From Oscillospiraceae bacterium (GTDB lineage: Bacteria; Bacillota; Clostridia; Oscillospirales; Ruminococcaceae): 64,000 nt of DNA. Positions 4,386-53,083 of this stretch are shown here, piece by piece (within the stretch, counting starts at the first letter, position 1; each line of letters starts with the position of its first letter). Under the pieces are notes generated by a model that was not told the origin of the DNA, made no database searches, and worked only from the letters and a program-made list of their open reading frames with translations. Both the position numbers and the translations under genes were made by a program. Where the stretch lies: assembly GCA_022787085.1 (NCBI GenBank), contig JALFVE010000005.1:12142-76141 (forward strand), given 5' to 3'.

Positions 4386-4790
4386 TCATCTTATTTTTAC
4401 GGTGAGCTTTTCGCCGCATTTCGGGCAGACGGCGGTATGCGTTCCGCTGCGCTTCGGCAGTCTGAGATATGCCTTGCAATGTGTACACTTTTTATAGCAA
4501 TGCTCCTTATCGGTAAGCATTGTTTTTGTCATTTTTATTTTTTTCGCCGCCTTCTCCTCTATTCGCAGAAATGCCTGATTCTCAAGGCTGCGCTTATACA
4601 CATTCTTCGAAAAACAGCGGTAGGTCGCCCAGATGAACAGCGCCCACATTATCACGCTCAGCACTGCCGAACGGAGAAACAGATTTATCACTGCCATTGT
4701 AAAATACAGCGCCACGGAGGCTTTATACAGGCTGTCCGCTCCGTTTCTTCCGTACATGAAGGCGATGAATTTATTCCTGAGCTTTTCCAT
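4386..4790 (-). CDS. Conserved hypothetical membrane protein with C-terminal zinc ribbon
   Basis: MYGRNGADSL start, two TM segments, CTHC...CPKC. Confidence 0.75.
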   Translation of the reverse strand: MEKLRNKFIAFMYGRNGADSLYKASVALYFTMAVINLFLRSAVLSVIMWALFIWATYRCFSKNVYKRSLENQAFLRIEEKAAKKIKMTKTMLTDKEHCYKKCTHCKAYLRLPKRSGTHTAVCPKCGEKLTVKIR

Positions 4791-4813
4791 TTTTTTGACC
4801 TCGGTTCTTAATT

Positions 4814-5509
4814 TTAAAATATAAACATCCAGCCGAAAAGGGACAGCAGCATTCTGAGGATAAATATTACCGCAAGAGAGAAGGTCGCTATGGACAGTAT
4901 GGTGGGCATTATCCTGCTTCTTCTGATGGCTGCGTCATACCGCTTATGATACTCTGCGGAAAGCTCCGCATATTCGGGGTCTGACGGGTCCTGCCTTCTC
5001 GCTTCGTCGGCATAGCGCACTGCTTCCCGATATTCCCCTGCCATGCTGCTGAGCTGCGCTGCGTAATAATACCATCTGCTGCTGCGCATTACCATTCGGT
5101 TCAGAAGCGACGCTGCAGAATCAAGGTCGCCCTCGGCAAGATATCTGCTTACCCTTTCATATGCCTCGTTCTCATTCATCTGAGAGGCGGCTGTGCCGAA
5201 ACCGAAGGAGCTGAAGAAGGAATTGAGAAAATCATCCATATCTCCGTACTGATAGGCTCCCGCTCCCGTATATCCGCCTGAGGCGCTCTGTCCTCCTGAA
5301 TTGGATGAGCCCCCTCTGTACGCCTTTGCTTCGCCCGATTTTATCATCTCATAGGCGGCGTTTATCTCGCTCATTTTTCGGGCTGCCTCCGGGTCGTTGG
5401 GGTGCAGGTCGGGGTGGTACTGCTTTACTAAGCTTCGGTATTTCTTCTTTATTTCGTCCTCGTCCGCATTGTAGGGCACGCCAAGCACCTGATAGGGATC
5501 AACGCTCAT
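4814..5509 (-). CDS. J-domain (DnaJ-like) protein with TPR-like helices and C-terminal TM
   Basis: DPYQVLGV...YHPD...INAAY J-domain; likely start ATG 5509 with SD GGAG. Confidence 0.85.
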   Translation of the reverse strand: MSVDPYQVLGVPYNADEDEIKKKYRSLVKQYHPDLHPNDPEAARKMSEINAAYEMIKSGEAKAYRGGSSNSGGQSASGGYTGAGAYQYGDMDDFLNSFFSSFGFGTAASQMNENEAYERVSRYLAEGDLDSAASLLNRMVMRSSRWYYYAAQLSSMAGEYREAVRYADEARRQDPSDPEYAELSAEYHKRYDAAIRRSRIMPTILSIATFSLAVIFILRMLLSLFGWMFIF

Positions 5510-5556
5510 AATCCTGCTCCATTTCAATTAATCGGTTGGTTTATTTTTCTTTTTCC

Positions 5557-5585
5557 ATTGTAGCATATCAGCTTTTTCACGTCAA
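5557..5585 (-). promoter_or_regulatory. SigA promoter for the J-domain/Zn-ribbon/TauE operon
   Basis: TTGACG (5585-5580), 17 bp, TACAAT (5562-5557). Confidence 0.65.
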
Positions 5586-5696
5586 TGGATTTTTCCGAAT
5601 TTTCATTTATCTGTCACCGTCGGAACAGGTTTTTAATCTGTTTCTAATGTTCTTATAAATTATCCCCCGTGCTTTTATTGCACGAGGGATATGACG

Positions 5697-11326: not shown

Positions 11327-12382
11327 TTATTTTATGTACTCTTTTAATGCGGAGATCAGCGCATTTATTTCTTCATCGGTTCCGATGGTTATTCTGAGAT
11401 GGTTATCTATCCTCGGCTTATTGAAAAATCTTACATAGATATCCTTTGTTTTTAAATAGGCGCTGATATCGGGGGCTTTATATTTCGGGTGAGCGGCAAA
11501 GAGAAAGTTGGTACTGCTGTTCTTTACGTCAAAGCCCATTTCCCGAAGCTCTGATGTCAGCCTGTCCCTCGTTTTTATTATCCTTCCAACCGTTTCTCTG
11601 AAATATGCCTCGTCGGCTACGGACGCACAGCCCGCTTCTATGGCTACGCTGTCTACGGGATAGGAATTGTAGGAGTCCTTTGCCGCTCTGAGAGCATTTA
11701 TAAGCTCAGCTCCCGCTGCGCAGAAGCCTATTCTCATTCCTGCCATGGAGCGGGATTTTGAGAAGGTCTGAACCACTGCAAGATTCGGATATTCCTTCAG
11801 AAGCGGCAGTGAGGATATGCCGCCGAAATCTACATATGCTTCGTCCGCTATTACCACACTGTCGGGATTGGCGTCGAGTATCTCACGCATAAAATCAAGA
11901 TCTCTGCCGATGCTTGTGGGGGCGTTGGGGTTGCAGATTATCACGCCGCCGTTTTCTCGTTTATAGTCCTCCGCTCTTATATTGAAGCTCTCGTCTACGG
12001 GCACAAGCTCATAGGGTATTTTCAGCATACTGCACCAGACGGGATAAAAGGAATAGGTGATATCGGGGTAAAGCACAGGTCTGCCCGAATTGAAAAAGGC
12101 TCGGAATGACAGCGCAAGCACATCGTCTGAGCCGTTTCCGATAAAGATATTTTCCTCCGATAATCCCAGCCTGCCTGCGATCGCCTTTACAAGCGGCGCT
12201 GCGTTTGCATCGGGATATTTACAGAGCCCCGAGGCTTTGAAGCTGTTTATTGCCTCGATCACCTTCGGTGAGGGGGGATAGGGATTTTCATTGGCGTTAA
12301 GCTTGATAAAATCAGTTTTATTCGGCTGCTCCCCTGCCACATAGGGGGCTATATCAATCAGATTATCCTTCCAGCTGCTCAT
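11327..12382 (-). CDS. hisC: Histidinol-phosphate aminotransferase
   Basis: KLNANENPYPP, GNGSD, CNPNAPT, DEAYVDF, QTFSKSRSMAGMRIG, LRITIG. Confidence 0.95.
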   Translation of the reverse strand: MSSWKDNLIDIAPYVAGEQPNKTDFIKLNANENPYPPSPKVIEAINSFKASGLCKYPDANAAPLVKAIAGRLGLSEENIFIGNGSDDVLALSFRAFFNSGRPVLYPDITYSFYPVWCSMLKIPYELVPVDESFNIRAEDYKRENGGVIICNPNAPTSIGRDLDFMREILDANPDSVVIADEAYVDFGGISSLPLLKEYPNLAVVQTFSKSRSMAGMRIGFCAAGAELINALRAAKDSYNSYPVDSVAIEAGCASVADEAYFRETVGRIIKTRDRLTSELREMGFDVKNSSTNFLFAAHPKYKAPDISAYLKTKDIYVRFFNKPRIDNHLRITIGTDEEINALISALKEYIK

Positions 12383-52491: not shown

Positions 52492-52547
52492 GTATTGTTA
52501 TAAAAAGCCGCCCCAATCGAGGCGGTTAAAATTTTTTATGAAGCAGC

Positions 52548-53012
52548 CTAATCCGAAGCCATCTCATCCGAAGCAAATCTCAACATCAGAAACATTGCCG
52601 CAGCAGAAATAAAAATTCCGATGATGCCGCCAACAGTCATGACCGTTCCATAGATCTCACCGCTAATAAAATACGTTGCCCACTTGAGCAGCCCCATTGT
52701 TATATTCACAAGTAAGCACAGCTTCAGATCGCCGAATTTATACTAATAACCATTTGTTCTATGGATAAAGACGGTGGATAGAATACGTCCAGTCAAGGAA
52801 AACGACCGCAGCAAGGCTTGCCGCCTTGCAAGGGAGTTTGACGCAGAGTGGGCGTATTATAGACACCGTATTTTGTCCATAGGTTAAATGGTTATTAGTA
52901 TTAAATCGGATAAACATGAGAGAAGCAATTGCGCCTAAAATTATAACTACGAGCTGCGTTCCGAAATAAACAAAGAACGGGACCATTGCTGTCAGGAAGT
53001 CAAAACCTTCAT
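52548..53012 (-). pseudogene. Small (~100 aa, about 3 TM) membrane-protein gene interrupted by a MITE-like insertion
   Basis: Removing 52741-52903 joins ...GAIASLMFIRF to KFGDLKLCLLVNITMGLLKW...ASDEMASD*; SD GGAAAGG and ATG at 53012 need one extra T to enter the frame. Confidence 0.8.
52741..52900. mobile_element. 160-bp MITE-like element
   Basis: 15-bp perfect TIR TACTAATAACCATTT (22/25 when extended), TTA duplicated at 52738-52740 and 52901-52903, no coding capacity, internal hairpin GCAAGGC/GCCTTGC. Confidence 0.85.
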
Positions 53013-53038
53013 TTTTAACTGACCTTTCCTTTAGTTTG

Positions 53039-53067
53039 GGCATAGAAGAAACCCGTTCTTCTATGCC
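53039..53067 (-). terminator. Terminator of the phosphorelay operon
   Basis: 12-bp perfect stem GGCATAGAAGAA/TTCTTCTATGCC, 17 nt after the stop; poor U-tail. Confidence 0.65.
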
Positions 53068-53083
53068 TTAACGAATAATCTTA

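Follow-up and report, generated by a model that had tools for sequence, protein, structure and literature searches.

RUP, a MITE of about 107 bp in Streptococcus pneumoniae, is attributed to IS630-Spn1, and both RUP and the IS630 elements duplicate TA at their target. The same dinucleotide is duplicated by the Correia elements of Neisseria, for which we know of no autonomous partner. Zator was reportedly described by Bao and coworkers in 2009 as a eukaryotic superfamily related to Tc1/mariner and with a 3-bp duplication. RUP (repeat unit of pneumococcus) is named in a review where the Correia elements (CREE/NEMIS) are presented as MITEs of about 100–155 bp, found in tens to hundreds of copies, which can disrupt or regulate genes and whose RNA hairpins are cleaved by RNase III when co-transcribed (PMC10969869).

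The element analyzed here lies in a 64-kb window (the whole stretch of DNA that was analyzed) from an Oscillospiraceae bacterium. It is of a known kind, a MITE inserted in a small ORF, and the finding itself is ordinary. Like RUP, it is a short, high-copy, non-coding and mostly intergenic repeat that forms a hairpin, inserts into other repeats and has TIRs matching those of an IS630-family IS of the same host. Unlike RUP, it is 160 bp long, duplicates TNA, contains a module missing from the IS and is hosted by gut Oscillospiraceae. With the Correia elements it shares the short length, the multiple copies and the long hairpin, but it differs from them in having an IS630-type partner with matching ends and in the TNA duplication. 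The 3-bp TNA/TWA duplication and the preference for TTA/TAA are common to the Tourist/mPing MITEs (PIF/Harbinger) and to bacterial IS5-family elements (IS1031/ISL2), and this likeness is what had led an earlier note on this DNA to IS5/PIF-Harbinger; the transposases are, however, different (DDE_3 against DDE_Tnp_1/4) and so are the ends, which in the IS5 elements of this genus begin with GAAC. The likeness to Zator, by description only, is that of an IS630/Tc1/mariner relative duplicating 3 bp and not TA, although Zator is eukaryotic and the present element bacterial. Two traits are unusual: an IS630 lineage leaves a 3-bp TNA footprint, and a conserved module, biased to one strand, occurs across MITE families.

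The 160-bp MITE and its probable IS630-family partner

The 160-bp stretch at positions 52741–52900 of the window is a true MITE. Perfect 15-nt TIRs with TTA on each side were read directly from the sequence, as the earlier note had claimed, and the count of the TIR agrees with it: TACTAATAACCATTT matched twice in the 64-kb window, once per strand, against 0.07 matches expected, and none of 100 shuffles reached two. This left TIR (52741–52755, plus strand) consists of a conserved TACTAAT tip and an 8-nt box that differs between subfamilies, and the right TIR (52886–52900, minus strand) is its perfect reverse complement. At the left junction GCCGAATTTA is followed by TACTAATAACCATTT, and at the right junction AAATGGTTATTAGTA by TTAAATCGG; the longer reads into the element are TACTAATAACCATTTGTTCTATGG and CCATAGGTTAAATGGTTATTAGTA, respectively. 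The arms pair well past the 15 nt (38-nt arms at 84%), and the whole 160 nt forms a single long hairpin (-87.9 kcal/mol, z = -13.4). No ORF lies inside the element apart from a chance one of 37 aa and the read-through of the host frame. Based on the related loci, the folding energy and the pairing, the element was annotated on the plus strand, the better-folding one, which is antisense to the interrupted ORF.

The TTA trinucleotides at 52738–52740 and 52901–52903 were annotated as target-site duplications from the sequence, the matching flanks found family-wide and the single TNA of empty sites. Identical 3-bp flanks were observed in 76 of 85 distinct full copies from other genomes (TTA in 57, TAA in 13, TCA in five and TGA in one). 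Since the middle base varies and yet matches on both sides, the three bases are duplicated target and not element sequence. Empty sites carry a single TNA, so that 3 bp and not 2 are duplicated. A copy in a deer-gut MAG (locus L046) reads GAGCTGAGC TGA, MITE, TGA, and the orthologous site in the window's genome (contig C24:30930-31214; C designates the contigs of this genome) is empty with a single TGA; likewise, the site on C50 is filled (TCA) inside a repeated sequence whose paralogues on C8 and C43 are empty with a single TCA. These flanks and empty sites bear out the proposal of a non-autonomous element mobilized in trans with a real 3-bp duplication. The target sequence is T-rich directly upstream, and the insertion orientation favors TTA over TAA by about 4 to 1, which indicates that the two ends of the element are not equivalent. 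A role of the 8-nt variable box as a guide matching the target flanks was rejected by eye, as copies with the same box were found in unrelated flanks. The repeated sequence that was the MITE target on C50 is about 360 bp long (84–88% identity) and occurs in at least four places (C8:32667-33029, C33:51710-52070, C43:82308-82435 and the C50 flanks).

The search for other genome copies, proposed in the earlier note, returned about 45 related loci in the window's genome (2.53 Mb, 56 contigs), many of them at contig ends. Four own-genome loci, on contigs C47, C33, C39 and C3, showed at least 90% identity to the window copy. About 20 contig ends of this genome stop inside near-identical copies of sister subfamilies, an example of how short-read assemblies are broken by these repeats. 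In four relatives the ends were counted 62, 101, 164 and 189 times, against 0–5 for a control pattern, which gives about 30–95 copies in each. The TIRs were conserved across 76 distinct copies. Among species-representative genomes, a pattern scan identified as hosts Huintestinicola, 'uncultured Ruminococcus' and Oscillospiraceae MAGs from human, deer and other guts. The MITE is also present in the cultured H. butyrica Sanger_06, which we infer, on the basis of identical contig hits, to be of the same genus as the window's genome. Additionally, two unannotated human-faeces contigs labeled 'Bacteriophage sp.' contain MITE copies with 72–76% identity (MT836087.1:6780-6937 and MT837242.1:6-123); either phages of these bacteria carry the MITE or the contigs are bacterial.

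The other search proposed, for an autonomous IS with the ends of the MITE, was also successful. An apparently intact element of 1129 bp with the same TNA duplication (TCA on both sides) was located at C3:41015-42143, 1.5 kb from another MITE copy (C3:39308-39466). Its tips are TACTAAACACCATTTAAAAACAGGATAAAAT and TACTAACCACCAATTAAACTATAGACAAAAT, its TIRs begin with TACTAA, and its tip TACTAAACACCATTT at C3:41015 is matched by the left TIR tip of the window copy. In ungapped comparison, the arms of the window MITE and the ends of the IS were identical at 21–26 of 34 positions, the right arm read inward reaching 26 of 34 with the transposase-proximal IS end, and the two IS ends were identical to each other at 25 of 34. 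An HTH ORF is followed by a DDE_3 ORF, and both overlap at A_AAA_AAA (TC A AAA AAA TTA), which reads as a standard slippery site, and a -1 shift there would fuse them. The Pfam matches were DDE_3 (85.6 bits; C3:41124-41534), HTH_23, HTH_33 and HTH_29, and the NCBIfam model NF033545, 'IS630 family transposase', scored 142.4 bits on ORF2 (cut-off 100), with ORF1 covering model positions 1–129. The transposase type with its HTH domains and the size of about 1.1–1.2 kb with short TIRs agree with the IS630 family, and the target duplication departs from it: IS630-family elements are expected to duplicate a TA target, and the 3-bp TNA footprint of the C3 lineage is therefore atypical. Five further copies of the IS were flanked by TTA, TTA, TCA, TAA and TAA. 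One variant of the IS shares its 8-nt box, CTTCAATC, with a matching subfamily of the MITE, and for this reason the hypervariable yet complementary box is best read as co-variation of the TIRs with transposase lineages. It speaks against the pairing that the assemblies of seven of the 11 other genomes searched, most of them MITE-rich, show no DDE_3 gene, and that the C3 transposase would need the putative -1 frameshift.

According to the mechanism proposed, the TACTAA... ends that the MITE shares with an IS630-family IS would let the DDE transposase of the latter move it in trans by cut and paste. This transposase lineage would insert at T-N-A, with a preference for TTA, duplicating all three bases, and one copy would have landed in the TTA of ...CGA TTT AAA TTC... 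inside a small membrane-protein ORF of about 110 codons. Judging from the ends and the footprint, the C3-type IS lineage is probably the actual mobilizer, and it would define an IS630-family lineage that duplicates TNA and not TA. The explanation as a whole, an IS630-moved MITE with a TNA duplication inserted into a small three-segment membrane-protein ORF, is considered highly likely.

Longer elements with the same ends were also looked for. TIR pairs no more than 6–7 kb apart were searched for in the window's genome and in 755 kb of foreign loci, and all that emerged were MITEs, their mini derivatives and one 719-bp non-coding element; a self-BLAST of the window's genome for multi-copy IS elements found none assembled. 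The 719-bp element (L121:3830-4548) has TACTAATATTCGTC as its inverted ends and is flanked by a TCA/TCA duplication; its longest ORF does not exceed 95 aa, and none of the transposases tested resembles it. Between two truncated copies on C43, the 14 kb are housekeeping genes, which rules out a large composite transposon there. Nor do the left-end-only copies at C43:507 and C13:62601 delimit a longer element: they are truncated remnants that adjoin a T-box/pheS leader in one case and a LytTR-type regulator in the other.

The mini derivatives, of 59–82 bp, consist only of the arms and keep TNA duplications (C49:8762-8827, C51:5524-5589, C3:13693-13751, C14:20414-20492 and C29:4008-4089). Two near-identical minis of 66 bp have different duplications, TTA and TGA, which would mean either that minis can themselves transpose or that one deletion between GCCGA repeats has arisen more than once. 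TNA duplications also occur in a third MITE family, which is about 100 bp long (TACTAAACACCATTAGAATTATGG...; C56:~2520-2620, C29:~11390-11500, L075:4701-4800 and L080:2250-2349); its TIR is almost identical to that of the C3 IS630-type element, and it inserts into other repeats.

The interrupted reading frame

When the flanks were joined with one TTA, they read ATG TTT ATC CGA TTT AAA TTC GGC GAT within an open frame of 110 codons, MPKLKERSVKNEGFDFLTAMVPFFVYFGTQLVVIILGAIASLMFIRFKFGDLKLCLLVNITMGLLKWATYFISGEIYGTVMTVGGIIGIFISAAAMFLMLRFASDEMASD. The in-frame fusion of two hydrophobic half-ORFs on removing the element and one TTA, claimed in the earlier note, was thus confirmed: the removal of 163 nt (1 mod 3) is what the frames of the two halves need. 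The claim that a TA-duplication boundary fails to restore the frame also held by arithmetic on the ORF coordinates, since that boundary removes 2 mod 3. The joined ORF has three hydrophobic segments, and the element cuts after the first one. The 5' half (MPKLKERSVKNEGFDFLTAMVPFFVYFGTQLVVIILGAIASLMFIRF..., 52904–53043, minus strand) contains this first segment and, as it stands, continues for 47 more codons, one over the duplicated TTA and 46 inside the element, before a stop. The 3' half (52548–52740, minus strand) ends with ...KFGDLKLCLLVNITMGLLKWATYFISGEIYGTVMTVGGIIGIFISAAAMFLMLRFASDEMASD and a stop, just downstream of which lies an intrinsic-terminator-like hairpin with a T-run (CCGCCTCGATTGGGGCGG then CTTTTTATAA; 52508–52525, minus strand). 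The ORF, on the strand opposite to the plus strand of the MITE, is located downstream of a gene for a 1334-aa hybrid histidine kinase, with a convergent ABC-binding-protein gene beyond.

Whether the insertion hit a gene is the point on which the alternative to this part of the explanation turns, namely that the insertion was effectively intergenic, in an ORF that is a chance frame or long dead, and disrupted nothing functional. Several observations fit it. Homologues of the restored protein were searched for in 40 relatives (24 of the same genus) and in 5.8 billion proteins, and none was found. The only in-frame ATG is part of the hairpin after the kinase gene and is not preceded by a Shine-Dalgarno sequence. 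The copies of the family are mostly located between gene ends, with enrichment between convergent genes, and one of 97 lies inside an ORF by crude ORF calls. Moreover, compatible frames are expected by chance alone in one case out of three. Against this, both halves are coding-like when read in the joined frame, whereas the other frames are strongly non-coding: the 5' half scored +0.10 (other frames, -1.26 and -0.82), the 3' half +0.27 (-1.46 and -0.46) and the joined frame +0.19 per codon (-1.36 and -0.64), on a scale where real genes score 0.42 ± 0.13 and off-frame sequence -0.78 ± 0.24. The open joined frame of 110 codons, the three hydrophobic segments and the dedicated terminator after the stop also oppose a chance frame.

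The empty allele, which the earlier note had proposed to look for, would read GCCGAATTTAAATCGG at this site, and the empty-site 22-mer was absent from the JGI metagenomes. With neither homologue nor empty allele, the restoration of a gene is argued from the frame, the codon usage and the terminator, and, as there is also no convincing in-frame start with a ribosome-binding site, the ORF may be dead or spurious. A real or recently real gene is nevertheless favored by the codon usage, the hydrophobic segments and the terminator, and the ORF would then be a formerly working gene; the intergenic reading is considered possible but doubtful.

Regarding the start of the ORF, a stretch at 53002–53029 (minus strand) contains in its sequence an SD-like AAAGGAAAGG, an out-of-frame ATG (53010–53012) and a run of four T (53002–53005). 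The out-of-frame ATG reads ATG AAG GTT TTG ACT TCC TGA, with a stop after six codons; the insertion of a single T would bring it into the long frame. The poly-T frameshift near the ORF start that the earlier note had proposed is thus possible, the basis being an SD-like sequence placed before the out-of-frame ATG. The hairpin right after the stop of the kinase gene (53031–53075) has 20-nt arms and no T-run.

The strand-biased fold and the central module

The pairing of the element was analyzed on the 76 distinct copies, and 97.7% of the cells were paired, a value reached by none of 500 shuffles; slid controls paired at 30–41%. In 30 of 55 pairs both sides had changed, including pairs of the inner stems outside the TIRs. 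All 76 copies fold better on the plus strand (mean, -77.5 vs. -62.8 kcal/mol on the minus strand), and in the window copy the minus strand likewise reaches -62.8 kcal/mol, compared to the -87.9 of the plus strand. G-U cells numbered 243 (27 columns) against 19 A-C cells (13 columns), and a GTT/GTT loop at positions 16–18 from both ends was kept, with G-U in 76 of 76 copies and U-G in 73 of 76. The strand bias, the excess of G-U and the kept loop point to selection on a single-stranded form, RNA or DNA.

The center of the element is occupied by a module of 61 nt (52790–52850, plus strand), matched by covariance model R1 with 85.6 bits at C47:64931-64991 and absent from the IS. Roughly, it is laid out as CAAGG-N8-CGCAG, a GC hairpin and a second CAAGG-N8-CGCAG, the two units being direct. 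In the folded form, as we read it, the N8 segments pair as an 8-bp helix, and the CAAGG and CGCAG parts form two mirror-image internal loops. Pairing in this structure reaches 96.5%, and both partners have changed in 11 of the 17 pairs. A survey of the family with the covariance model detected the module in 48 of the 251 genomes and 39 of the 166 genera sampled, and the copies were usually numerous. The palindromic repeats that contain it form at least five families whose arms are unrelated: that of the window copy (fam1, TACTAAT...), fam2 (TATAGCAATACAAG..., the TATAGCAAT family), fam4 (AGAACCTGTCTTCACAAG..., with ends matching those of an IS5-family element), fam5 (AGAGCCTGTTCAGAATC...) and the GC-rich fam6. 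Between families, helix P2 of the module shows covariation (AAAAC/GTTT, AAAGC/GCTT and AAAAATCC/GGATTTTT). A K-turn reading of the tandem G.A of the module was rejected, because both positions are Watson-Crick in sister families and the motif is therefore not conserved. One unannotated fam2 repeat with the module lies on plasmid pRUMAL02 of Ruminococcus albus 7 (NC_014825.1:268390-268610; L192:2444-2612), between hypothetical genes and a P4-type primase gene.

On these data, it could be argued that the element has a further function, perhaps its main one, as a structured nucleic acid (RNA or a hairpin of single-stranded DNA) in which arms and module are selected beyond recognition by the transposase; a protein-binding or RNase-processed RNA module riding on several MITE families would be a candidate. 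The bias of all 76 copies with its G-U excess, the changes on both sides in inner stems outside the TIRs, the sharing of a module absent from the IS among families with unrelated arms and the covariation of P2 all speak for it. On the other side, no Rfam match was obtained on the element (E up to 1) or on four sister families (E up to 0.01), the copies showed no orientation bias relative to neighboring genes, and a consensus scan detected no promoter inside the element or near the host ORF. Palindromic DNA can, moreover, hold its arms complementary through DNA-level processes, and the common ancestry of the copies means that the cell counts are not independent. Insertion does not require the module, since TNA duplications also flank the minis, which are devoid of it.

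From the strand bias and the pairing, we infer that the hairpin and its central module have been selected as single-stranded RNA or DNA. That the element as a whole functions as a structured nucleic acid is a tentative proposal, possible but doubtful, and that the module is functional as a fold in its own right is put at about the same low level. A broader version, in which such a single-stranded fold, e.g., the binding site of a dimeric host or element protein, is carried or exchanged among MITE families of different transposases and is accompanied by an IS630 lineage duplicating TNA, is similarly speculative. The carriers of the module would then span IS630-type (TNA), TA-type and IS5-type MITE families across many Oscillospiraceae genera.

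Other candidate mobilizers and significance

The parentage proposed in the earlier note, mobilization by an IS5/PIF-Harbinger-type transposase, was argued from the 3-bp TWA duplication. IS5-family (IS1031/ISL2-like) elements do exist in the genus: one at L183:1481-2297 has the TIR GAACTTGTCCACATAGAA and TTA/TTA flanks, TNA flanks were found in seven of nine copies of such elements, and a fragment lies at a contig end in the window's genome (C33:81394-81553), where only the last 160 bp are assembled, abutting the TTA of a MITE copy. In addition, the sister family fam4 (e.g., C56:2470-2736) has ends nearly identical to those of a variant IS5-family IS (GCTTGTGAAGACAGGTTC vs. GCTTGTGAAGACAAGTTC). 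The tips of the IS5-family elements of the genus (GAAC..., GAACTTGTCC...) are, however, unlike TACTAAT, and PF01609 and PF13359 (DDE_Tnp_1 and DDE_Tnp_4; IS4/IS5) gave no match in the assembly of the window's genome, whereas the IS630-family element of the same genome agrees with the MITE in its TACTAA tips, subterminal motifs and TNA duplication. The 3-bp TNA/TWA duplication is indeed found here, but it is not exclusive to IS5/PIF-Harbinger, since the IS630-type element makes the same one. The proposed parentage did not hold up and is considered very improbable.

Individual IS5-family candidates were also discarded. The DDE_Tnp_1_2 route reached IS5-family elements that use TNA and have the wrong tips (GAACTTGTCCACATAGAA), and a weak likeness of an IS5-family tip to the MITE subterminal TTGTCCATAGG was in the wrong orientation and was attributed to chance. 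A further candidate from H. butyrica, an IS427-like IS5-family element, was rejected as parent, as it has a TA duplication and GAG tips and merely inserts into MITE ends. This element (TIR GAGYGTATCTGAAAA) occurs in H. butyrica and a relative (L166:~905-1790, L068:~121-996 and L082:~4700-5600), and in two of the three cases it is inserted in or right beside MITE termini (TTAG context).

A REP/REPIN-like palindrome moved on single-stranded hairpins by an HUH enzyme (RAYT or IS200/IS605-type) would fit the strand-biased hairpin, the compensatory changes and the location at gene ends, but it can be considered already refuted, because such elements make no target duplication while a 3-bp duplication is seen here in flanks and empty sites, and because a DDE element with the ends of the MITE exists.

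The IS630-family lineage remains the preferred mobilizer, and its apparent 3-bp TNA duplication bears on the evolution of target choice and cut spacing in the IS630/Tc1/mariner superfamily. A very abundant repeat of Oscillospiraceae from human and animal guts, which can reach about 95 copies in a genome of 2.6 Mb, is paired with an apparently intact IS630-family element, and, since the cultured H. butyrica also carries the MITE, the system is testable at the bench. Should the module prove to work as an RNA or as a protein-binding fold, a regulatory part would be spread around the genome by these elements.
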